Part shown: one piece after another, positions 17,294-61,805 of the stretch
Numbering within the stretch: position 1 is the stretch's first letter
How the letters are laid out: each line of letters begins with the position of its first letter
Virus record (IMG/VR): IMGVR_UViG_3300037504_001229
Span: 26,580 to 90,579 of that record
DNA length: 64,000 bases
Direction: 5' to 3' (one strand)
Source: a virus
Translations under genes and position numbers: made by a program
The notes under the pieces: model-generated
What the model was told of the DNA's origin: nothing
Databases searched by the model: none
Seen by the model: the letters and a program-made list of their open reading frames with translations, nothing else

Positions 17294-18070
17294 GTGAAGA
17301 TTATTTTATGCTCAATGATCGATGATTTTTTTATGGTTGGATTTGAAGTTTTTATGAAGTCACTTCTTAAAACTAATCCTTGGTTTGATCTACCTTTTCG
17401 TTTAATAGATGTAGGACTTAATAAAAAGAATAAAGAAAAATGTTTAGAAATATATTCTAACATTGAGTTTGTTAAACCTAAAAAGGAAAACTATAAAAAA
17501 ATAAGTTTTGAAAAAACTCATGAAATACTTTGGAATACTTATTATAAGTTAGATATTTTTTCATATGATGATGTAGATAGACTTGTATTTCTTGATTTAG
17601 ATATGATAGTATTAGAGGATATTAAAAAACTGTTTGAGTTTACTGTTACTATAGGAGGGTGTAAAGGATATTCTCAAGGTAATGATAGTTTAAGAAAAGA
17701 TATGAATACTGGATGTATTGTTCTTAATAAACCAGTTTTGAATAATAGTATCTATAAAAACATACTAGATTATACAGCTAAAGCAGGTGGATTTAGTATG
17801 CCAGATCAAAAAGCAATAGGTCAGTTTTTTAAAAATAAAATAGCATTTATTCCAAAGGAGTTTGATTGTGAAAAAAGACTTTGGAAGGGAGATAAGTTTA
17901 AACTTTTTTTTAATGATAAAAATGAACTAATGTATAAAGAAGGGAAGAAGATTTCTAAGTGTAAGATTCTTCACTATGTGAGCGAGAAGCCATGGCAAGA
18001 GAAAAAGGATAAAATAAACTTTGGGTATGAAGAACTTGAAAAACTCTGGTGGAATGTAAAGAATGAGTAG
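17294..18070 (+). CDS. glycosyltransferase family 8
   Basis: YYKLDIF, FLDLD (DxD), NTG, DQ, LHY..KPW. Confidence 0.85.
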   Translation: MKIILCSMIDDFFMVGFEVFMKSLLKTNPWFDLPFRLIDVGLNKKNKEKCLEIYSNIEFVKPKKENYKKISFEKTHEILWNTYYKLDIFSYDDVDRLVFLDLDMIVLEDIKKLFEFTVTIGGCKGYSQGNDSLRKDMNTGCIVLNKPVLNNSIYKNILDYTAKAGGFSMPDQKAIGQFFKNKIAFIPKEFDCEKRLWKGDKFKLFFNDKNELMYKEGKKISKCKILHYVSEKPWQEKKDKINFGYEELEKLWWNVKNE

Positions 18071-18407
18071 AGAATTATTATTTTCTGTTACAAAAAAAGA
18101 TTTAGAAATTACTTGGTTTTCAGGAAAAGGAGCAGGTGGTCAACATAGAAATAAACATCAAAACTGTTGCAGAATTAAACATCCGGAAAGTGGAGTTATT
18201 GTAACTGGACAGGAAGAAAAAAGTAGAGATAAAAACTTAAGAAATGCTTTTAAAAGACTAACTGAAAATAAAAAATTTAAAACTTGGTTAAAAATAAAAA
18301 CTTCTGAGCTAATGAATGATTCATATAGTATTGAGGAACAAGTTAATAACGCTATGAGAGAAGAAAATTTAAAGGTGGAATATGGAAAAGATATCGATTC
18401 GCAATAG
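18063..18407 (+). CDS. peptidyl-tRNA hydrolase, release factor domain 3 only (ArfB/PrfH-like)
   Basis: SGKGAGGQHRNK GGQ motif, 114 aa. Confidence 0.85.
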   Translation: MSRELLFSVTKKDLEITWFSGKGAGGQHRNKHQNCCRIKHPESGVIVTGQEEKSRDKNLRNAFKRLTENKKFKTWLKIKTSELMNDSYSIEEQVNNAMREENLKVEYGKDIDSQ

Positions 18408-35606: not shown

Positions 35607-35625
35607 GTCTAAAAATTTCCTTAAA

Positions 35626-35671
35626 CTTTTTTCAAAAAATACTTTAAATTTTAGACAAAAAAGTATATAAT
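35626..35671 (+). promoter_or_regulatory. repeated phage promoter, class A
   Basis: TTTAAA(35643)-17-TATAAT(35666). Confidence 0.8.
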
Positions 35672-35714
35672 ATAAATAGAAAGTAAATAAATTATTTAAC
35701 TAAGGAGTTAGAAA

Positions 35715-40594: not shown

Positions 40595-42013
40595 ATGGGA
40601 GTAGAACAAGCACTAGTAACTCAAGAGCAGAATGTACTTGCAAGTTGTTTGAAAAACAGAGAATATATTTTAGATATAGATAAGAAGTATTTTGTTTCAG
40701 ACGAAGCAGAAGTACTATTTACTGATCTAAAAAATTTATCTCTTTCTGAACATTTTCAAAATAGAAAAATAACTGCAAGGGATCTATTTGTAGAAGTTAA
40801 CAAAAGAGGATACGATATAACTCTATCTCTTATTGAAAATCTATATAAACTAGATATAGAAGTTGACGAGAAAAGCTTTGAAAGATACTATAAAGAGTTA
40901 AAAACTCTATGGTTTCAGTTTGAAGTTAGTGAAAAAACTTTTAAGTCTGTTTTAGAGGAAACAAATAAAACTACTTCCTTTGATATAAATAAAGTAAAAG
41001 ATACTATAAGTAATATTAATGCATGTATAGAAGAAATAGAGGAAGAGTGTAGTGATGTTTATAACTTAAATAGACTCTTTGATTTCTATTGTGAAGAGTT
41101 GGAAAATAGAAATTCAAGACAACCATATGGAACTGGATGTGGCCATTTAGATAAGGAACTAACAGAGGGATTTGCCCCTGGATATATAACTATAATATTT
41201 GGTCCTTCGGGAGTAGGAAAGTCAGCATATGGATTATATCTTGTAAACAAACAAATAAATAAAATGATTCCTAACTTATATTTTAGTTTAGAAATGGGGC
41301 CAATATCAAATATGGATAGACTATGTGCTCAACGATTAGGAATAGACTATAAATACTTTTATCCAGATTATCATAATGACAAACCTATTCCAGATCATAT
41401 TGTAAACATGGTAAAAGAAGAAGCAGAAAAGTTAAAAAACTATAAACATTTTTATTACTTTGATTTGAGTAGTCCAACTTTAAGTGAAATAGAGTCATAT
41501 ATAATGAAGTATAAAAATAAAATGAATGTTGATAATCTTGTTGTTACAATAGATCTTCTGACAATGATATATGACTTTAATAAAAATACAGGAAATAGTC
41601 AGGCGTCAGTATATGAAAAAGCAATGAACGAAGTACACTTTATTGCAAAAAGAACTAATGCTCATATTGTAGGAGTAGTACAAGCAAGAAGACCTCAAGA
41701 AAAAGTAAAGATAAGATCTATAGATCAACTATTAAGATTTAGACCTGGAAAAGAGGAGTTAAAAAACTCAGGATCTATGGAAGAAAGGTCAAGGATTATT
41801 TTGGGAATATTCCGTCCTAAACACTTTGCAAATGTTTATCTCCCAGATTCACCAGAAACTCAAATACTAAGTGATACTATGGAAGTATCTGTACTTAAAC
41901 AAAATATGGGGGCTTTAAATAGAATAGAGTATTTATTTGATCCTAATAGATATAAACTAACTCCATATGAACGACCTGAAGAAGACCTATATCAAAGTGA
42001 AGAAGAAGAGTAA
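40595..42013 (+). CDS. DnaB-like replicative helicase
   Basis: GPSGVGKS, FSLEM, IDLL, VVQARR, KNSGSMEE. Confidence 0.88.
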   Translation: MGVEQALVTQEQNVLASCLKNREYILDIDKKYFVSDEAEVLFTDLKNLSLSEHFQNRKITARDLFVEVNKRGYDITLSLIENLYKLDIEVDEKSFERYYKELKTLWFQFEVSEKTFKSVLEETNKTTSFDINKVKDTISNINACIEEIEEECSDVYNLNRLFDFYCEELENRNSRQPYGTGCGHLDKELTEGFAPGYITIIFGPSGVGKSAYGLYLVNKQINKMIPNLYFSLEMGPISNMDRLCAQRLGIDYKYFYPDYHNDKPIPDHIVNMVKEEAEKLKNYKHFYYFDLSSPTLSEIESYIMKYKNKMNVDNLVVTIDLLTMIYDFNKNTGNSQASVYEKAMNEVHFIAKRTNAHIVGVVQARRPQEKVKIRSIDQLLRFRPGKEELKNSGSMEERSRIILGIFRPKHFANVYLPDSPETQILSDTMEVSVLKQNMGALNRIEYLFDPNRYKLTPYERPEEDLYQSEEEE

Positions 42014-42014
42014 A

Positions 42015-42060
42015 CTTTTTTCAAAAAATACTTTAAATTTTGAGCAAAAAAGTATATAAT
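42015..42060 (+). promoter_or_regulatory. repeated phage promoter, class A
   Basis: TTTAAA(42032)-17-TATAAT(42055). Confidence 0.8.
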
Positions 42061-42104
42061 AATAATAAATAGAAAAGAAAATCTTAAATATTGGGGGAAA
42101 TATT

Positions 42105-42959: not shown

Positions 42960-42977
42960 TAGAGAAGGATAAAGAGT

Positions 42978-43050
42978 GGGGCTATACGTATAATGGCTAG
43001 TACATCTGACTTTCGATCAGAAGATCCCGGTTCGATTCCGGGTAGCCCTA
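42978..43050 (+). tRNA. tRNA-Glu(TTC)
   Basis: anticodon arm tctga-ctTTCga-tcaga, T arm cccgg-ttcgatt-ccggg. Confidence 0.9.
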
Positions 43051-43057
43051 TAGAAAA

Positions 43058-43102
43058 TTTTTTCAAAAAATACTTTAAATTTTATTCAAAAAAGTATATA
43101 AT
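43058..43102 (+). promoter_or_regulatory. repeated phage promoter, class A
   Basis: TTTAAA(43074)-17-TATAAT(43097). Confidence 0.8.
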
Positions 43103-43122
43103 ATATATAGAGGAGAAAGAAA

Positions 43123-43275
43123 ATGATAAAAATAAGTAGAGCAGTATCAGGGCGTAATATACCGGGGTTTAAAGACTATTGGAGACCAAAGTTGTTAAAT
43201 TCCATATCTAGAAAAGCAACTGATCCAAAAATCTATGCTTGGCTATGGTGGAACATACTAATAAAGAGGGGATGA
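43123..43275 (+). CDS. small hypothetical protein (50 aa, not in ORF track)
   Basis: GAGGAG RBS; MIKISRAVSGRNIPG...WLWWNILIKRG*. Confidence 0.55.
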   Translation: MIKISRAVSGRNIPGFKDYWRPKLLNSISRKATDPKIYAWLWWNILIKRG

Positions 43276-43348
43276 GAGTGGCTTCGACTTTTTCTAAGAC
43301 CCGCAAAGGGTACGAGAAAGGAACTGGGTTCGACCCCCAGCATCTCCA
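43268..43348 (+). ncRNA. mini-tmRNA: tRNA-like domain only
   Basis: GGGGATG/CATCTCC acceptor stem with G3.U70 and A73, stemless D loop ending TTCGAC, T arm ctggg-ttcgacc-cccag; P2 capped by a short hairpin. Confidence 0.75.
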
Positions 43349-43398
43349 AAGGCTACGTTGTAGCTGGCAAATATTTTATTTAAATGGAGGACATTATT

Positions 43399-43800
43399 AT
43401 GTCTAACAAAATTGATTTCATTAGTGCACGGGCTGAAAGTATCTGCAAGGGAAAGGGTCGTGTCCATGGAGATTTCTACTTTCAGTATTCTACCAAGTCC
43501 CCAAAAAATAGGAACGGGGTTATGAATGTTTATATGAGCCCCGCTATTGCTAAAGCAGCTGATCTTAGGGAAAATGATATGGTAGATTGTGGCTTTCACC
43601 CTAAGACTGGAAAAGTTGTAGTAGCAAGGATTACTGACAAAAATCAGAGGCATTCACTTCTTAGGTATACTCCTAACAATAAGAGACTACGGTTTTCCTT
43701 TACACCGAGTGAGGAGTTTGTTAAAAGATTGTTTCCTAACGGTGAAACAATTTATGAACCTTCTAAGGTTCAGCCTAATCATGAGTTTATTCTCATTTAG
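43399..43800 (+). CDS. hypothetical protein
   Basis: GGAGG RBS favours start at 43399 rather than 43384. Confidence 0.65.
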   Translation: MSNKIDFISARAESICKGKGRVHGDFYFQYSTKSPKNRNGVMNVYMSPAIAKAADLRENDMVDCGFHPKTGKVVVARITDKNQRHSLLRYTPNNKRLRFSFTPSEEFVKRLFPNGETIYEPSKVQPNHEFILI

Positions 43801-43818
43801 GAAATAGGTTATTATGCG

Positions 43819-43973
43819 GCAGGATTCCACGGAGGAAGGTCGGGGCATTGATGCCCTAATATGTGCGACCCACTTCAGATACAGTGGAGCGGAGGCGAAA
43901 GCAAAGATGTGACGAAGCTGTATACAGTGAAACCCTTCGATAGTTTATAGTAGTTTATTTCTTGGGATCCTGC
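43819..43973 (+). ncRNA. unclassified structured RNA in tRNA cluster
   Basis: closing stem gcaggattcc/gggatcctgc; internal ggtcg/cgacc, gggca/tgccc, ccact/agtgg, gaagg/ccttc. Confidence 0.55.
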
Positions 43974-43982
43974 TTTATTATT

Positions 43983-44055
43983 TGGTCTGTAGCTGAGTTG
44001 GTACAGCACCTGACTGTTAATCAGGAGATCGATAGTTCGAGTCTATCCAGACCAG
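43983..44055 (+). tRNA. tRNA-Asn(GTT)
   Basis: cctga-ctGTTaa-tcagg; acceptor tggtctg/cagacca. Confidence 0.92.
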
Positions 44056-44072
44056 ATAGGAGTTTTTCATGA

Positions 44073-44474
44073 ATGAAAAAACTTATTGAATGGATAAAAA
44101 ATGCACCTTTAGAAGAACTTACAAAAGAATTAGAATCATGTGGAGTTGAATTTATGGAAGAAAAAAAATATGTAACGATTACTTTAAACTTAGAGTTAAA
44201 ACTTATACATCAATTGTATGGATTTGCTATTGCATACAACACTACAATAGATGAAGTAATAAATATGATGCTAAAAGAATATATAGAAAAGCATCCTATA
44301 AAAGGAGAAGTTAATAAAAAAGGAATAGAAATTTGTGAATGGAAATGGGATGAGTCATTACGTAGAGGATATGGGGGGTATAAAACTTCTTGTGGGGTTA
44401 TTTCTTCCCATTCAAATTTTCCTTCTTATAATTGTAGGTTTTGTGGTAGAGAAAAAAGGGAAATAGAAAATTAG
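44073..44474 (+). CDS. hypothetical protein (possible RHH-like middle, Zn finger end)
   Basis: C-terminal CRFCG. Confidence 0.55.
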   Translation: MKKLIEWIKNAPLEELTKELESCGVEFMEEKKYVTITLNLELKLIHQLYGFAIAYNTTIDEVINMMLKEYIEKHPIKGEVNKKGIEICEWKWDESLRRGYGGYKTSCGVISSHSNFPSYNCRFCGREKREIEN

Positions 44475-44550
44475 GCCCCATAGCTCAGTGGAATTAAAGA
44501 GCAGTTGACTTCTAATCAACAGGTCGAAGGTTCGAGTCCTTCTGGGGTCG
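44474..44550 (+). tRNA. tRNA-Arg(TCT)
   Basis: gttga-ctTCTaa-tcaac; acceptor ggcccca/tggggtc. Confidence 0.92.
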
Positions 44551-44738
44551 AAAAAGAATAAAAATATAGATTATTTAAAATAATAGAGGTTAAAAAATTA
44601 TGTTACATAAAAAGATTACAATTGAAGAAATAAGAAAATCAATAGAAAATCAACTTGAAGAAATCATTGAGATGCATAAGAAAATACGTGCTGGCACATA
44701 CAAACCAGAGTCAAAAGTCGATGTGATAGGAGAAAAAA

Positions 44739-44951
44739 ATGTTACATGAGAAAATGACGAGAGAGGAAGTTTATAAAAATGGAGATTTAATTATTGAAAG
44801 AATTGCTGATGTAATTTTTAATCCTAAATATGATACAGAGGATTCAGATTATGCAGTACAACTATTTTTTGAATATATTATAAATTTTCAGGATAGTTAT
44901 ACAAAAGATGATCTTAAACTAGCATTATATAGTCTTTGGAATAAATACTAA
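44739..44951 (+). CDS. hypothetical protein
   Basis: AGGAG RBS. Confidence 0.55.
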   Translation: MLHEKMTREEVYKNGDLIIERIADVIFNPKYDTEDSDYAVQLFFEYIINFQDSYTKDDLKLALYSLWNKY

Positions 44952-44963
44952 TGAATAATTTTA

Positions 44964-45173
44964 ATGGAGGAAAAAATGAAAGAACAAATTGATCAAGTAA
45001 TTCAATTTGCTAATTTAGCAGCAGAATCTGCTATAACTAATAAGATACCTAGTGTAACTGCAAAACTTGCTAAAGAGTATTTTAAAGAGTTTAAGGAAGT
45101 TGGGTTTAACGAGAAACAAGCATTTATTATGGTTAAGGAACTTATAAGCCAAGGAATTTTTCCTAGGGAGTAA
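44964..45173 (+). CDS. hypothetical protein
   Basis: ORF; start may be the second Met after GGAGG. Confidence 0.55.
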   Translation: MEEKMKEQIDQVIQFANLAAESAITNKIPSVTAKLAKEYFKEFKEVGFNEKQAFIMVKELISQGIFPRE

Positions 45174-45180
45174 ACGATAT

Positions 45181-45267
45181 GCCCAAGTGATGGAATGGGA
45201 TACATGCCAGACTTAAAATCTGGTGCTCATAATATAGAGATTGGGGGTTCAAATCCCTCCTTGGGCA
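45181..45267 (+). tRNA. tRNA-Leu(TAA)
   Basis: ccaga-ctTAAaa-tctgg; long variable arm. Confidence 0.92.
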
Positions 45268-45277
45268 ATAAGTGTAA

Positions 45278-45349
45278 GGATCATTAGTTCAGAAGTTAGA
45301 ACAGAGGATTGTCGATCCTCAGACACGAGTTCGATTCTCGTATGGTCCG
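45278..45349 (+). tRNA. tRNA-Asp(GTC)
   Basis: gagga-ttGTCga-tcctc. Confidence 0.9.
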
Positions 45350-45353
45350 ATAA

Positions 45354-45438
45354 GGGAAGTTGGCAGAGTGGTCAATTGCACCAGACTGTAAATCTGGCGT
45401 CCTAACGGGCTACGAAGGTTCGAATCCTTCACTTCCCA
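45354..45438 (+). tRNA. tRNA-Tyr(GTA)
   Basis: ccaga-ctGTAaa-tctgg; long variable arm. Confidence 0.93.
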
Positions 45439-45466
45439 ATAAAAAATTTTTATAAGGAGAAAGAAA

Positions 45467-45643
45467 ATGGATACGGAAGTTTCGTTGGAAGTAGAACTTA
45501 CAGATGGAACCGAAAGGAGCTACAGTAGTGTGAAAGGTTTTAAGATCGAGTATACAGGATCGTTATTGTCTTTCAAGTTTAACGGAATAACTTATTACAT
45601 TCCTACTTGTAATATAGTTTGTTTTAAAACAGAAAAAGTTTAA
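45467..45643 (+). CDS. small hypothetical protein (58 aa, not in ORF track)
   Basis: AAGGAG RBS; MDTEVSLEVELTDG...FKTEKV*. Confidence 0.6.
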   Translation: MDTEVSLEVELTDGTERSYSSVKGFKIEYTGSLLSFKFNGITYYIPTCNIVCFKTEKV

Positions 45644-45649
45644 AAAGTT

Positions 45650-45720
45650 TGACCTATCGTATAATGGTAGTACACAGGGTTTTGGTCCCTGAGGTGGTGG
45701 TTCGATTCCATCTAGGTCAG
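45650..45720 (+). tRNA. tRNA-Gln(TTG)
   Basis: caggg-ttTTGgt-ccctg; U1-A72. Confidence 0.92.
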
Positions 45721-45844
45721 TATTTGCATAGATAATACCTAGGCAATTTTATTTATGTAGATAATGCTTATAGTACCGAGGGGAATATGGGCGGTAGGGA
45801 ATGGAGAGGTAGCTCCTTTCGAGTAGGTACTATATAGTATTTTT

Positions 45845-45919
45845 GGGCATTTAGCTCAGTATGGTAGTAGCAACGCCCTTTTAAGGCGTAGGTCCTAGGT
45901 TCAAATCCTAGAGTGCTCA
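45845..45919 (+). tRNA. tRNA-Lys(TTT)
   Basis: acgcc-ctTTTaa-ggcgt. Confidence 0.92.
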
Positions 45920-45923
45920 ATAT

Positions 45924-45994
45924 CTCCTGATAACCAAGTGGTAAGGTGATAGATTGCAAATCTATTTTCGTAGGTTCAATTCCTACTCAGGAGT
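45924..45994 (+). tRNA. tRNA-Cys(GCA)
   Basis: ataga-ttGCAaa-tctat; U73. Confidence 0.9.
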
Positions 45995-46067
45995 TTAATG
46001 TAACATTATAAATTGTAATGTAACATCTATGATGTTAATAAGTAAAAAATAATGTTAAGGAGGAAAT

Positions 46068-46427
46068 ATGGGATTAAATATTTTTGGTTCTAATTGCAAA
46101 TGTAATTCGGTACCTTTTACAACTGTGGACAAAATTTCTAATGTAACAGGTAATCCTAATCCTAGAAACTTTGAGATTATTAAACTTAAAGAAATAGGAA
46201 AGTTTACTATAGCAGAAATTAAATACCCTGATTGTAATAATTATGAAGGACACAAAATATTATTATTTTATAATGTTAGAGAAGAGACAATTAGAAACTA
46301 TGATTTTTTAGACCCTCATTTTTGTGATAATAAAAAACATCTTTCTCCTATTGCAAGATTTGATCCTGAAATAGGTTGGAAGATGGCAAAGTTTTTTGCA
46401 GAGAAATTTATGGAAGAGTTAAACTAA
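46068..46427 (+). CDS. conserved phage hypothetical protein
   Basis: NPNPRNF, YPDCNNYEG, LDPHF, SPIARF. Confidence 0.65.
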   Translation: MGLNIFGSNCKCNSVPFTTVDKISNVTGNPNPRNFEIIKLKEIGKFTIAEIKYPDCNNYEGHKILLFYNVREETIRNYDFLDPHFCDNKKHLSPIARFDPEIGWKMAKFFAEKFMEELN

Positions 46428-46435
46428 TATATTAT

Positions 46436-46508
46436 GCCCCTTTCGTATAATGGCTATTATAAGGGATTTCCAATCCAAAGATATCAGTTCAATTCCTACT
46501 CAGGAGTT
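46436..46508 (+). pseudogene. chimeric pseudo-tRNA (Gly-TCC 5' part + tRNA-Cys 3' end)
   Basis: D arm and TCC loop present, but 46487-46508 is identical to tRNA-Cys 45974-45995; acceptor and T stems do not pair. Confidence 0.75.
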
Positions 46509-46522
46509 AAAGGAGAACAAAA

Positions 46523-46666
46523 ATGAATAGAGAAGAAAAGAAATCTAAATATTTTTGTAGTACTTGTAGAAGAGAAGTAGATGATCCTCATAAAGATGTT
46601 AATGGAAAGGTTATTATTTTCCGTTGTCCTTTATGTGGGGAAGAAGTGGGGAGAAGAATGAAATGA
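46523..46666 (+). CDS. small Zn-ribbon protein (47 aa, not in ORF track)
   Basis: AGGAG RBS; CSTC...CPLCG. Confidence 0.6.
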   Translation: MNREEKKSKYFCSTCRREVDDPHKDVNGKVIIFRCPLCGEEVGRRMK

Positions 46667-47109
46667 AACTTGTTAAACCAATAGAAGTAGAATATATAGA
46701 TTGTAAACCTGTATCTTCTGCTGATGCTAAACGAATACTAGAATATGATGTTCCAGATATGATTAAAATTGCAGAAGAACATGAGGGAGTAGGATTGGCT
46801 GCACCTCAAGTAGGAATAAGGAAAAGATTTTTTGTAATGAAATTTAACGAAGAGTGGAGAACTTTTTTTAATCCCACTTTAGTAAAAATAGATAATACTA
46901 AAATAAAGGATAAGGAAGGATGTCTTAACTACGAAAAAGGAAAAAAGTTTGTAGAAGTTAAGAGATTTAAAAGAGTTATGCTTATATATGAAGAATGGAG
47001 TAGTGTAAAAGAAACACTAGTAAAAAGAAAGGGAACCTTTTTTGATTTTGATGCAAGAGTAGTTCAACATGAGGTAGATCATTTAAATGGGAAAACTATA
47101 TTTGTATAA
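46663..47109 (+). CDS. def: peptide deformylase
   Basis: GVGLAAPQVG, EGCL, QHEVDH; ATG at 46663 overlaps the upstream stop. Confidence 0.93.
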   Translation: MKLVKPIEVEYIDCKPVSSADAKRILEYDVPDMIKIAEEHEGVGLAAPQVGIRKRFFVMKFNEEWRTFFNPTLVKIDNTKIKDKEGCLNYEKGKKFVEVKRFKRVMLIYEEWSSVKETLVKRKGTFFDFDARVVQHEVDHLNGKTIFV

Positions 47110-47180
47110 GTCAGTATGGTGTAATGGTAACATTAGAGATTTCCAATCTCAAGCTGAGGGTTCAATTCCCTCTACTGACT
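47110..47180 (+). tRNA. tRNA-Gly(TCC)
   Basis: gaga-ttTCCaa-tctc; acceptor gtcagta/tactgac. Confidence 0.88.
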
Positions 47181-47181
47181 T

Positions 47182-47253
47182 TGTAGGGTAGAGCAGTGGT
47201 AGCTTATCGGTCTCATAAGCCGATGGTCGCTGGTTCGAATCCAGCCCCTGCAA
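47182..47253 (+). tRNA. tRNA-Met(CAT), initiator-like
   Basis: tcggt-ctCATaa-gccga; overall similarity to tRNA-fMet. Confidence 0.85.
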
Positions 47254-47254
47254 A

Positions 47255-47373
47255 AGAGTAGTTTTTGAGGTTTGCATGTTTCCGTGAGTAAAACCGGGTT
47301 TCACCTAAAGGGTAGCCTAAAGCTTGATCAACTTTAGGAAAAAGACATGAACCTAAAGTACCCTAACTACTCT
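47255..47373 (+). ncRNA. unclassified structured RNA between tRNA-Met and tRNA-Thr
   Basis: agagtagtt/aactactct, aggtt+catgttt/agacatg+aacct, cctaaag/ctttagg. Confidence 0.55.
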
Positions 47374-47378
47374 TATAT

Positions 47379-47450
47379 GCCCTTTAAGCATAAATGGTAA
47401 TGCACTGGACTTGTAATCCTGGTAAGGGGGTTCGATTCCCTCAAAGGGCT
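47379..47450 (+). tRNA. tRNA-Thr(TGT)
   Basis: ctgga-ctTGTaa-tcctg; acceptor gcccttt/aaagggc. Confidence 0.88.
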
Positions 47451-47452
47451 CT

Positions 47453-47525
47453 GTGACCATAGCTCAGGCGGAAGAGCAGAAGATTGTGATTCTTCAGGTC
47501 GGGGGTTCGATTCCCCTTGGTCACC
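47453..47525 (+). tRNA. tRNA-His(GTG)
   Basis: gaaga-ttGTGat-tcttc; C73. Confidence 0.9.
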
Positions 47526-47541
47526 TAAAAAATTTTTTGTT

Positions 47542-47573
47542 TACTTTAAAACTAATAGAAAAAAGTATATAAT
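47542..47573 (+). promoter_or_regulatory. repeated phage promoter, class A
   Basis: TTTAAA(47545)-17-TATAAT(47568). Confidence 0.75.
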
Positions 47574-47595
47574 ATAAATAGGAGGATGAGTAAAT

Positions 47596-49212: not shown

Positions 49213-49929
49213 ATGAAAAAACTAAAACTAGCCCTTGATATGGATAATACAATAAATAAACTTTCTCCATCTTTCCTGCAGTATGTAGAATATGGACTTT
49301 GGGGAGAAAATAAAGATAATAAGCCTTCTTTTGCTACAGGATTTTTAGATCTTTTAAATGGGAATAAAATAGAAAATTATGAAGATGCTATTATTGCAAA
49401 AGAATGGGAAACATTTGAAAATAACTCTTATAAATACTATGAGTTAGAAAAGTATTTTCCTTTTATACCAGAGGAAGTCTTTAAAGAAATTTACTATAAA
49501 GTTTTCGATAGTTATGACTTTTGGATTAATGTTCCCCCAATGGAAAGAGTAAAAGAAGAAATATCAATATTAGATGAAATATTTGATCTTTATATTGTTA
49601 CTTATCCATATAGATTTTTGCAAAATTCTATTAAAGGGAAATTAGATTGGGTTAAAAAACACCTTCCTTTTATAAGGAGATATCAGATTATATTTGAGGA
49701 TAAAAAATATTCTAAGGAACTAAACTATGATATTATTATAGATGATAATCCTGATATACTTAAAAAAGCATATGAACAAGATATATTTACAGTTAAGTTT
49801 AACCATTTCTATAATATAGATTCTCCTTGTCATGATGAACTACAAAGTTGGGTCAACGGAAAAATCTATAGAGTTATACAAAATATAAAAAAATACTTTA
49901 AAAGTGATAGAAAAAAGTATATAATATAA
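49213..49929 (+). CDS. 5'(3')-deoxyribonucleotidase (NT5C-like HAD)
   Basis: LDMDNT, IVT, K..W, IIDDNP. Confidence 0.82.
   Translation: MKKLKLALDMDNTINKLSPSFLQYVEYGLWGENKDNKPSFATGFLDLLNGNKIENYEDAIIAKEWETFENNSYKYYELEKYFPFIPEEVFKEIYYKVFDSYDFWINVPPMERVKEEISILDEIFDLYIVTYPYRFLQNSIKGKLDWVKKHLPFIRRYQIIFEDKKYSKELNYDIIIDDNPDILKKAYEQDIFTVKFNHFYNIDSPCHDELQSWVNGKIYRVIQNIKKYFKSDRKKYII
49894..49925 (+). promoter_or_regulatory. repeated phage promoter, class A (inside 3' end of upstream CDS)
   Basis: TTTAAA(49897)-17-TATAAT(49920). Confidence 0.7.
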
Positions 49930-54411: not shown

Positions 54412-56730
54412 ATGAAACTGAGGGAAGAAAAAAGACAAATACAAAGCAATCTAGTAGGGGATCAGTCTTTCAAAATAAAGGCCGATGCAAAGGCCTTTCG
54501 TATCCTATCTGACAAGCTTTACTCAAATAAGATTAAGGCTATTATAAGGGAACTGTCAACTAATGCTTATGATAGCCATGTAGACTCGGAACAACCTGAC
54601 CGTCCATTTATAATACAACTTCCGAATAATCTTGAACCTACTTTCGCAGTAGAAGATTTCGGGACTGGGATGGACGAAGAAAAGATTCTTAACCTTTATA
54701 GTACCTATTTTGATTCGGATAAGATCGAGTCTAATACAGCGGTAGGTGCTCTTGGACTAGGAAGTAAAAGTCCTTTTGCTTATACTGATACATTTACAGT
54801 AATATCAAAACATAAAGGAACAAAATCAATCTATACATGTTTTCTTAATGAAGAAGAAGTTCCGTCGATTCTTAAAATAGGAAGTGAACCTACTAGAGAA
54901 GAAAATGGACTTCGAGTTGAGTTTGCTGTAGAGGAAAAACATTTTCATAGATTCGAAGAGGAGGCTGCAATAGTATTAGCGCCTTTTAAAGTAAAACCTA
55001 TTATTAAAGGGGCGGAAATAGAAATAAAAGAATATCCCGATATTATTATTGAGGGAGAGGGATGGAAGTTACTTCAGCAACGAGGATATAGTTATAGATA
55101 TAGATTTTTTGACTCAATAGCTATTCAGGGGAATATTGAATATCCTATTAAAATCGACGAAGTAAAAAAGGATCAAGAAAGACTTACTAAAAAATATAAA
55201 GTAAGTAACGAAAAGTTCAACGAAGTTTTAACTATCTTTGACAGAAATGCTTTTGTAATAGAGTTCCCTCTTGGATCACTTGGGTTTGCCCCAAGCAGAG
55301 AGCATCTGGAATATAATAAGTTTACAAATGATGCAATCTTTACTCGATGTTGGAATGTATATCAAGAGTTGCAAGATAAGATAGTAGAAACTTTAAGTAG
55401 TATTGAAAATGTTGTAGATCTAAGTCTCAAATATCATCAAATAGAAAATTATGTTTCTATTAAAGATTCAGAATTTCTTGAACTTGAAATAGATAATAAA
55501 GGCACAACATTATATGACTATATTGCTGTTCAAGAATATGAATATGATAAAGATTATGAAGTATATGATTATGAGGCATATCCTGGTTTTTCTAACGAAG
55601 TTAAGTGTGTAAAACTAAAAAAGAGACATGGATATAAACAAAATGGTAACTTTTATGATTTTCTTTCTTCTAGTAACAATAGATCAAATGTTAGAGTTAT
55701 TTATCACGACGAACAGTATGACGACTCTAAAAAAAGATCGGGTATGTATAGGGTTAAACAACATATAAGAGCCCATGAGTTTAAAGCTATTATTATTTAC
55801 AACAAAAATCTTCTAGGCCGCCTTAAAGAAAAAGATTATGAGTTAATTTCTTCTTACGAATATCTCAAAAAGCCTGGGAGGAAAGGGTCTAATGGTTCTT
55901 CTAGCTCTACTGATACTGATATTGTATATGTACATAAAGCTATAATAGAACAGCAGGGAATAAAGTTTAAATCAGAAAGCATAGAGGTAAAAGATCTTAT
56001 TCAAGATCCTGAGTTTCTAAAAGATCCTCATAAAGCATTTGCTACTGACTTTTATAGTAGATATAAATGTACTGATATAAATGGAGAAGACAAGGAAATT
56101 GAAAGGTATGAAATTAAAGAAAGGATACATTGGCTTTTTGGATTAGAAAGATATGCCGATTTCCAGCATAAAATAGGAGATGAGTTTTTTCGGTTTTATA
56201 CAATGAAAAGAAGTCATCTTGGAAAAAGTGAATTAAAGGAATTAAACTGGAATTCAATACAACATGTTTTTAAGGATCGGTTTCATAAAGTATTTGCAAA
56301 TGAAAATGTTAAAAAAGCAATACAAAATATGCTCCGCCTGAATCAATATACAAATATCCCCAGAGAAATAAAAAATATTGTAGGAATAGTAAACAAAACA
56401 AAACTAAAAGATTATGAAAAAAGATTATATTATCTAACATCTAAAATAGATAGTGTACAAATCTATGAGGAAGATCAAAGAAATATTGGATTACCTAAGT
56501 ATGAAATTAAAGGTCTTTTTTATGAATACGATGTAAACTTTATTAAAGGAATTGAAAAAAATCTTAGTGAAAAACTTTATAAATTGATCAAAAAAGTATA
56601 TAATAATATTATAAAGAAGAGGTATCCGATGATAAAGGTTGTGTCATTAAATGATATTTTTTGGATCGAAGATTTCTTAGATAAACATAAAAAAAATATT
56701 AACTCTTATATAGAGTTAGTAAATAAATAA
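54412..56730 (+). CDS. rIIA: rIIA-like protein (GHKL ATPase N-terminus)
   Basis: LYSNKIKAIIRELSTNAYDSH, DFGTG, GLGSKSPFAYTDTF. Confidence 0.9.
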   Translation: MKLREEKRQIQSNLVGDQSFKIKADAKAFRILSDKLYSNKIKAIIRELSTNAYDSHVDSEQPDRPFIIQLPNNLEPTFAVEDFGTGMDEEKILNLYSTYFDSDKIESNTAVGALGLGSKSPFAYTDTFTVISKHKGTKSIYTCFLNEEEVPSILKIGSEPTREENGLRVEFAVEEKHFHRFEEEAAIVLAPFKVKPIIKGAEIEIKEYPDIIIEGEGWKLLQQRGYSYRYRFFDSIAIQGNIEYPIKIDEVKKDQERLTKKYKVSNEKFNEVLTIFDRNAFVIEFPLGSLGFAPSREHLEYNKFTNDAIFTRCWNVYQELQDKIVETLSSIENVVDLSLKYHQIENYVSIKDSEFLELEIDNKGTTLYDYIAVQEYEYDKDYEVYDYEAYPGFSNEVKCVKLKKRHGYKQNGNFYDFLSSSNNRSNVRVIYHDEQYDDSKKRSGMYRVKQHIRAHEFKAIIIYNKNLLGRLKEKDYELISSYEYLKKPGRKGSNGSSSSTDTDIVYVHKAIIEQQGIKFKSESIEVKDLIQDPEFLKDPHKAFATDFYSRYKCTDINGEDKEIERYEIKERIHWLFGLERYADFQHKIGDEFFRFYTMKRSHLGKSELKELNWNSIQHVFKDRFHKVFANENVKKAIQNMLRLNQYTNIPREIKNIVGIVNKTKLKDYEKRLYYLTSKIDSVQIYEEDQRNIGLPKYEIKGLFYEYDVNFIKGIEKNLSEKLYKLIKKVYNNIIKKRYPMIKVVSLNDIFWIEDFLDKHKKNINSYIELVNK

Positions 56731-61579: not shown

Positions 61580-61757
61580 CATAGTGGGAAAACAAGTTAG
61601 TAAGAATGCAAGAAAAGAGTCTAGATCTGATAAAATACATTGTGCTTGTGGTGGAGAGATTAAAATGATAACACGATTTATAAACGGTAAAAAGAAACAC
61701 TTAGCACAATGTCAATCATGTAAAAAAGAATCAAGAAAACCTAAAGATTTACTTTAA
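61554..61757 (+). CDS. small Zn-ribbon protein
   Basis: CACGG...CQSC. Confidence 0.5.
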   Translation: MDSEVQEDDIVGKQVSKNARKESRSDKIHCACGGEIKMITRFINGKKKHLAQCQSCKKESRKPKDLL

Positions 61758-61781
61758 ATTTAGAGTAAAAAAGTATATAAT
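61750..61781 (+). promoter_or_regulatory. repeated phage promoter, class A
   Basis: TTTAAA(61753)-17-TATAAT(61776). Confidence 0.75.
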
Positions 61782-61805
61782 AAGTATATATAAGGAAGGA
61801 AGAAA

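Follow-up and report, generated by a model that had tools for sequence, protein, structure and literature searches.

Why would a phage carry a transfer-messenger RNA (tmRNA) gene that has kept only the end accepting alanine? The question is raised by an 81-nucleotide (nt) element at 43268–43348 of the window, the whole 64-kb stretch of DNA analysed here, which extends to the end of a 90.6-kb IMG/VR virus record (IMGVR_UViG_3300037504_001229) with a CheckV completeness of 62%. The IMG/VR virus record and matches in the window to PHROGs for rIIA, rIIB, a clamp loader, a DnaB-like helicase and a family A-type DNA polymerase identify the carrier as a phage. We are confident that the element is a real tmRNA gene reduced to its tRNA-like domain (TLD) and without a coding sequence (CDS), hereafter the mini-tmRNA. 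Trans-translation is the main bacterial route of ribosome rescue; on it depends what becomes of proteins translated from broken mRNAs, which arise from nuclease-based defences and from phage-induced mRNA decay. That a phage gene retains of tmRNA only the part that accepts alanine and binds SmpB suggests phage interference with this pathway. The letters at 43268–43348 are exactly those quoted in a first-pass annotation of the same DNA, and they divide as follows.

43268–43348, + strand: TLD-only (tag-less) tmRNA gene, 81 nt up to discriminator A73 (RF00023 alignment, segmentation, family stems)
43268–43274, + strand: acceptor stem 5′ strand GGGGAUG, pairing with CAUCUCC at 43341–43347 (7/7 pairs, including G3:U70)
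43275–43288, + strand: D loop AGAGUGGCUUCGAC, no D stem (aligned to tmRNA model positions 8–21)
43289–43294 with 43314–43319, + strand: helix 2a, UUUUUC/GAGAAA (segmentation)
43295–43313, + strand: inner loop and 4-bp hairpin ACCC-GCAAA-GGGU closing helix 2a (segmentation)
43320–43323, + strand: GGAA (segmentation)
43324–43340, + strand: T arm CUGGG-UUCGACC-CCCAG (5/5 pairs)
43341–43347, + strand: acceptor stem 3′ strand CAUCUCC (segmentation)
43348, + strand: discriminator A73, followed by AAGG, with no CCA encoded (sequence, tRNA-array comparison)

The TLD hallmarks named in the first-pass annotation, an acceptor G3:U70 pair, A73, a stemless D loop ending in UUCGAC and a T arm, are all seen. 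RF00023, the Rfam tmRNA model, matches 43268–43349 with 50.3 bits, where the gathering score is 47 bits; the alignment spans model positions 1–374, of which 294 are deleted and replaced by 6 nt, and in it the D loop reads UGGCUUCGAC. The segment at 43289–43319, made up of helix 2a and its hairpin, occupies the place of the tmRNA pseudoknots and tag frame: neither PK1–PK4 nor replacements for them are present, and the D loop is separated from the T arm by no more than a 6-bp helix and a 4-bp hairpin. The absence of pseudoknots, tag frame and anticodon arm had also been claimed before, and the RF00023 alignment, ARAGORN and a frame search of the + strand agree on it, as on the absence of a resume codon and a stop codon. 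The mini-tmRNA has the tRNA-like half of what defines a tmRNA and lacks the message half. Alanyl-tRNA synthetase (AlaRS) recognizes its substrates by G3:U70; judged by sequence, the predicted determinants for alanylation and for SmpB and EF-Tu binding are present.

Models of neighbouring RNA families leave the element aside. The tRNA model RF00005 has no match at the site at E ≤ 10, the mitochondrial tmRNA model RF02544 has 0 matches in the whole record at E ≤ 10, with 60 candidates scored, and the permuted two-piece tmRNA model RF04321 reaches 10.7 bits (E = 3.7) with its 3′ end cut off. By model search, the mini-tmRNA falls outside the mitochondrial, permuted and tRNA families. The first-pass annotation had called for ARAGORN and for Infernal with the tmRNA and mitochondrial tmRNA models; RF00023 supplies the match, at 50.3 bits, and ARAGORN and the mitochondrial model are silent. 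Standard annotation thus misses the mini-tmRNA: ARAGORN makes no call and Rfam makes one only just. The element is also not the acceptor half of a permuted two-piece tmRNA, a possibility that the annotation had raised against itself: both acceptor strands stand in normal order within one 81-nt unit, and helix 2 is closed on itself.

How widespread such RNAs are was addressed by searching IMG/VR with the pattern GGGGNNGAN{2,4}GGNTTCGACN{20,50}GGTTCRANNCC, which fixes only the 5′ GGGG..GA, the D-loop GG.TTCGAC, a gap of 20–50 nt and the T-loop GGTTCRA..CC, and leaves the acceptor 3′ strand, T-stem pairs 1–3, the discriminator and helix 2 unconstrained. The pattern matches 69 viral loci, which together with the window give 70 elements, and 69 of these have 7/7 acceptor and 5/5 T-stem pairs (L040 fails). 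The passing elements comprise 51 distinct sequences of 63–92 nt, including that of the window, and all 51 have G3:U70 and all 51 have A73. Across the same 51 sequences, acceptor pairs 5 and 6 covary with five pair types each, T-stem pairs 1–3 covary with four to five pair types each, and pairs 1 and 2 of helix 2a are paired in every sequence with six pair types each. The unbroken helix 2a run from the GAC/GGA anchor averages 5.5 bp, against 0.63 bp (largest 1.04) in 200 shuffles of the insert. In these sequence comparisons, all stems of the TLD-only family are maintained by compensatory changes. A short RF00023 match above the cut-off is found in 33/33 viral records of at least 20 kb, at 48.9–77 bits, the 50.3 bits of the window lying at the low end, and no long tmRNA is detected by RF00023 in the 11 viral records that carry a mini-tmRNA and are at least 90% complete. 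The window gene is part of a much wider set, 51 distinct IMG/VR sequences under one strict pattern; relative to the searched literature, this breadth in uncultured phages and the invariant alanine mark are new.

In other phages the mini-tmRNA gene sometimes sits inside a tRNA array, 0–6 nt from its tRNA neighbours in three loci (L009, L023 and L056), and 13 of the 60 viral loci scanned have at least one tRNA gene. In 5 of 60 loci (L010, L018, L060, L053 and L064), ARAGORN calls a 343–489-nt ‘tmRNA’ that ends exactly at the 3′ end of the mini gene and has an odd tag peptide; these calls are either spurious extensions of the mini gene or genuine longer forms that have another 5′ end further upstream.

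As a control, the same pattern run on 596 Gb of bacterial and archaeal genomes gives 49 matches in 48 loci, of which 21/49 fail the stems. Among the 28 that pass, 21 belong to chromosomes of Candidatus Poribacteria (21 loci within L076–L120), where the TLD-only gene is conserved and 82–83 nt long. In each of four Poribacteria genomes (G034–G037), the short gene, at 64–70 bits, occurs beside a standard full-length tmRNA of 177–198 bits, and one of the four has two short genes. Poribacteria are a cellular, not a phage, home for such RNA.

The nearest relatives of the window RNA are found in viral loci L007/L064 and L017 and in eight metagenome loci, which have in common with it the inner motif AAGACCC...GGGUAC. 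Their helix 2a reads AUCUCG/CGGGAU against UUUUUC/GAGAAA in the window, so that four of six pairs are swapped on both strands with pairing intact. The metagenome loci come from a subfamily search in which 46 loci match and 8 pass the strict stem test; a further pair, L148 and L162 (the latter truncated by a contig end), is similar but uncounted, and the remainder are chance matches in coding DNA. As opposed to these relatives of the RNA, relatives of the phage itself are elusive. None of the 46 metagenome loci is close to it, a 1-kb blastn against 50,697 phage records and an exact 21-mer search of viral contigs return none, and locus searches with the DnaB-like helicase alone and the downstream open reading frame (ORF) alone find no relative. 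Among the matches listed, no phage relative of the window DNA polymerase exceeds 25% identity, and the 81-nt element itself returns from the phage records only a 25-nt T-arm match to a tRNA-Arg.

The stretch is found in seven DNA sequencing runs, six labelled tidal flat metagenome and one ‘metagenome’; three of the tidal-flat runs (X1–X3) contain 76–98% of the sampled sequence words. Two runs contain a second strain, represented by a 153-nt alternative contig over 43194–43346 with nine differences. Three of these fall in the mini-tmRNA, and all are structure-neutral or improving: G11>A falls on a D-loop position that is variable, C37>A affects the hairpin loop, and G49>A turns the helix 2a wobble U25·G49 into a U-A pair when the helix is drawn in the register of the family and of Rfam (C21-G53, then U22-A52 through to C27-G47). 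The 7-bp outer helix proposed in the first-pass annotation (tttttct/agaaagg) is slid by two bases against this register. The minimum free energy (MFE) fold draws the earlier register too, but the natural G49>A variant would break its C27-G49 pair. As a single substitution, G49>A is a weak hint in favour of the Rfam and family register.

The closest precedent in print is the tmRNA of Mycobacterium phage DS6A, listed as ‘TLD only’ (PMC4131195). The DS6A form is reported to have inhibited the endogenous tmRNA in E. coli (PMC11915505), and the RNA is taken as an inhibitor of host tmRNA (PMC4131195, PMC11915505). Both RNAs are phage-borne, of about 80 nt, with a full acceptor stem, G3:U70, A73, a T arm and no tag frame. 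In both, a purine-rich loop and a short G+C hairpin close helix 2a, after which come UAC, the 3′ strand and the T arm: ...CGCCG-ACGAAAA-CCGC-ACGC-GGUAC-CGGCG... in DS6A and UUUUUC-UAAG-ACCC-GCAAA-GGGUAC-GAGAAA in the window. Sequence likeness between the two is confined to the tmRNA core. The DS6A RNA differs in its GGUGGUCGAC D loop and in the GCAC before its T arm, and it draws no RF00023 call at the gathering score. DS6A is an actinobacteriophage whose gene is flanked by gp33 and a DNA polymerase III gene, whereas the window gene lies within a tRNA array in an uncultured tidal-flat phage of 29% G+C with rIIA and rIIB. The DS6A RNA was reportedly first described by Mao et al. in 2009 (RNA Biol 6:355). 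The window RNA is built like the ‘TLD only’ RNA of DS6A and, by analogy, would work like it.

Within the searched literature, and as far as the accessible parts of the sources go, RNAs of this kind are described by PMC4131195 and PMC11915505 (Williams group) alone, with DS6A as the only phage case besides plastid and mitochondrial ones; supplementary tables may list more. The phage precedent, together with the silence of RF02544, displaces the mitochondrial TLD-only tmRNAs that the first-pass annotation had offered as the comparison. Jakobid mitochondrial and CDS-less plastid tmRNAs, the latter about 65 bp (PMC11915505), likewise consist of a TLD without an mRNA-like region, but each is the sole tmRNA of its organelle, whereas a phage copy acts where the cell, as a rule, has a full tmRNA. 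Similar to the bacterial one-piece tmRNA (SsrA, RF00023), the window RNA has an alanine-identity acceptor stem, the stemless D loop GG.UUCGAC, a discriminator A, a T arm and the helix 2a register with GAC/GGA; unlike it, the RNA has lost 294 of 374 model positions, that is, the pseudoknots, resume codon, tag frame and stop, and its gene encodes no CCA. Permuted two-piece tmRNAs (RF04321), known from phages and Alphaproteobacteria and found in phage Melnitz (PMC9004378), are also phage-encoded members of the trans-translation RNA family; in the window the gene order is standard and unbroken, and the coding piece is not found.

What the phage would do with such an RNA is, on balance, to compete with host tmRNA: we think it somewhat probable, from sequence and from the DS6A analogy, that the mini-tmRNA is an alanine-charged, SmpB-binding competitor that lowers ssrA tagging. 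It would be transcribed with the tRNA array, probably from a sigma-70-like promoter at 43074–43102, excised by host tRNA-processing enzymes and given its CCA by the host. AlaRS would charge it with alanine through G3:U70 and A73, and host SmpB would bind at the elbow of D loop and helix 2a. The TLD of tmRNA is bound by each of AlaRS, EF-Tu and SmpB; SmpB protects tmRNA and enhances aminoacylation of the TLD, and together the TLD and SmpB imitate a complete tRNA in both the A and the P site (PMC3929946). The charged RNA would most likely be a rival of host tmRNA for SmpB and EF-Tu and, on stalled ribosomes, for the empty A site, so that ssrA tagging, and perhaps also tmRNA-linked mRNA decay, would be reduced during infection. 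Without resume codon, tag frame and pseudoknots, the mini-tmRNA cannot template a degradation tag. The presence of U70, rather than the better-pairing C70, and of A73 in 51/51 sequences suggests selection on alanylation, and hence more than a passive SmpB sponge; from its sequence, the RNA probably acts at the ribosome. The interpretation in the first-pass annotation is supported in part; the two functions that it proposed, a decoy and a tag-less rescue RNA, also rank first here as proposals.

Several observations weigh against a competitor of host tmRNA, or against the identification beneath it. The RF00023 score is only 3 bits above the cut-off; 50.3 bits is obtained in four of six Infernal runs and the match is lost in two, falling below the gathering score when the model is given 911 nt and shrinking to a 12-bit truncated alignment when it is given 301 nt. 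Since the score varies with input length, it depends on the filters and banding of Infernal, and the match is real but marginal. ARAGORN calls neither a tRNA nor a tmRNA at the site, even at a relaxed threshold. The fold is unremarkable, with an MFE of −28.9 kcal/mol (z = −1.77) that 10 of 200 shuffles match; support comes from the RF00023 match and the sequence comparison, not from fold stability. Inhibition by the DS6A RNA is known only through PMC4131195 and PMC11915505, which both cite Mao et al. 2009 and word it slightly differently. TLD-only RNAs, moreover, need not be anti-host weapons, since four of four Poribacteria genomes pair the mini gene with a standard tmRNA. Finally, if charging is what is selected, as the invariant G3:U70 would have it, a productive role at the ribosome fits the data as well as inhibition does.

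The surroundings of the gene bear on the alternatives. Window G+C is 27–34% in 4-kb windows, nearly all long ORFs lie on the + strand, and the features of the locus, with one more distant gene, are these.

42977–47525, + strand: tRNA array with 13 tRNA genes, the mini-tmRNA being the second RNA gene (ARAGORN, Rfam)
43046–43104, + strand: promoter-like element, TTTAAA at 43074, 17-nt spacer, TATAAT ending at 43102, 165 nt upstream of the mini-tmRNA (sigma-70-type scan, 10 of 12)
43123–43275, + strand: 50-codon ORF with a GAGGAG ribosome-binding site and a TGA stop at 43273–43275, within the acceptor 5′ strand (ORF list, sequence)
43815–43975, + strand: G+C-rich structured RNA of about 160 nt, 470 nt downstream of the mini-tmRNA and ending just before tRNA-Asn (MFE −51.7 kcal/mol, z = −2.0)
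46624–47109, + strand: peptide deformylase gene within the tRNA array (Pfam PF01327, 98 bits)
18063–18407, + strand: 114-aa stand-alone RF-1/GGQ-domain protein, motif GKGAGGQHRNK (Pfam PF00472, 58 bits)

The mini-tmRNA lies between tRNA-Glu, the first tRNA gene of the array, and tRNA-Asn, the second, in the order promoter, 50-codon ORF, mini-tmRNA, small hairpin, 133-aa ORF, structured RNA and tRNA-Asn. The small hairpin 3′ of the mini-tmRNA is not rated a terminator by the scan, and the 133-aa ORF matches no known family. CCA is encoded in 0/13 tRNA genes of the array, as in the mini-tmRNA. No SmpB, peptidyl-tRNA hydrolase, CCA-adding enzyme or RNase P RNA is found in the 62%-complete record, so maturation and use of the mini-tmRNA would rely on host factors.

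A serious though rather unlikely alternative is productive rescue without a tag, in which the alanine-charged TLD and SmpB would enter a stalled ribosome, take over the nascent chain and add one or several alanines without a template; a hydrolase or drop-off would then free the ribosome, and phage products from damaged mRNAs would escape the degradation tag of the host. The invariance of G3:U70 and A73 in 51/51 sequences points to charging, SmpB and a TLD fragment support polyalanine synthesis in vitro without mRNA (PMC3929946, citing Shimizu and Ueda 2006), and the phage invests in translation, with 13 tRNAs and a peptide deformylase. It also encodes the GGQ protein at 18063–18407, a candidate for the release step. 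That gene, however, lies 25 kb from the mini-tmRNA among glycosyltransferase and methyltransferase (glycan) genes, and its product has no ArfB-type basic C-terminal tail and scores 22 bits with the ArfB model against a cut-off of 100. Because an RF-1 domain protein is encoded in 0/33 other mini-tmRNA viral records, the 11 complete ones included, the GGQ protein is not counted as a partner, and a dedicated release factor as a trait of the family is ruled out. For a molecule of the DS6A type, the citing papers describe inhibition, not rescue. A fuller scheme is decidedly doubtful: template-free rescue with alanine addition, hydrolysis of the peptidyl-TLD by the phage GGQ protein, replacement of the tag-and-destroy pathway of the host by the phage, and the Poribacteria copies as cellular tuning of trans-translation.

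Very improbable, in our view, is a split tmRNA whose tag-coding, mRNA-like part is a separate gene elsewhere in the phage, even though about 38% of the genome is missing from the 62%-complete record. The search for a separate coding piece that the first-pass annotation had proposed finds none in the 90.6 kb: there is no other tmRNA-family match in the record or the tRNA array at E ≤ 5, ARAGORN with relaxed settings finds no tmRNA in the record, and the + strand has only two frames ending in A-A/V-stop, neither of them tag-like. Since the TLD closes helix 2 with a hairpin of its own, no strand is left free for a partner. The structured RNA at 43815–43975, placed 470 nt downstream, was considered as the tag-coding partner and rejected: it matches no Rfam family, the tmRNA families and RNase P included, none of 165 fetched loci (1.24 Mb) contains a relative, and in the variant strain it carries a 3-nt insertion, a 1-nt deletion and a 6-nt insertion, which would break a frame. 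The 11 complete mini-tmRNA phage genomes are likewise without a second RF00023 match above the cut-off, although a lone coding piece might escape the model. Hardly more credible is a role outside ribosome rescue, either as a signal at which RNase P/RNase Z would cut the early transcript, separating the 50-codon ORF from the next gene, or as a decoy for RNase R or for SmpB-like defence proteins. The stop of the ORF sits in the acceptor 5′ strand, so a cut at G1 would sever the mRNA and leave it stopless; an anti-CRISPR protein carries fragments of tRNAs and of tmRNA, about 90 nt long, that bind RNase R (PMC11662646), and SmpB-like domains are predicted in CoCoNuT defence systems (PMC10542128). 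A mere processing signal, however, would need no G3:U70, A73, tmRNA-type D loop or helix 2a, and these are kept in 51/51 sequences from unrelated phages. No defence or anti-defence gene is linked to the window locus, and no neighbouring protein recurs at the other loci (17 window ORFs, compared by tblastn with the 69 viral loci, give one weak helicase match and none adjoining the RNA), so the RNA itself is the conserved unit. That the element is a functionless remnant, a decayed captured host tmRNA or an attachment-site fragment, is barely conceivable. tmRNA genes are common integration sites and fragments of them occur in prophages (PMC9004378), but attachment sites include no more than the 3′ part, and the element here has two intact ends that pair; compensatory change keeps every stem across 51 distinct sequences, the strain variant preserves the structure, and no integrase turned up among the few window proteins scanned, a scan that was not directed at integrases.

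For expression of the gene, the first-pass annotation had pointed to ACTAATA just upstream as a candidate late-promoter motif. This motif is not enriched (28.3 matches are expected and 22 found, a count reached in 92 of 100 shuffles), and in the variant strain it is altered by 43261 A>G, with 43264 A>G just after it, and the RNA intact. A better candidate is the repeated TTTAAA-17-TATAAT element at 43074–43102. Its 14-nt core AAAGTATATAATAT has four exact copies on the + strand and 22 matches at up to two mismatches against 7.8 expected, a number reached in 0 of 100 shuffles. Seven near-identical copies are present, each 20–50 nt 5′ of a gene start.

35615–35673, 42004–42062, 43046–43104, 47517–47575, 49869–49927, 56548–56606 and 61725–61783, + strand: promoter-like copies of about 45 nt, ACTTTAAA...17 nt...AAAGTATATAATA

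By its match to the consensus, the repeated element is probably an early phage promoter, putatively served by the host polymerase, and the transcript that carries the mini-tmRNA would probably start at the copy at 43046–43104. The first reading frame on that transcript, the putative 50-codon ORF, has no Pfam, NCBIfam or PHROG match, and in the variant strain its last 18 codons differ by three synonymous and two replacement changes (I>V and K>E). In the assembled contigs, the repeated promoter-like element gives rise to extra contig ends and to one false joint.

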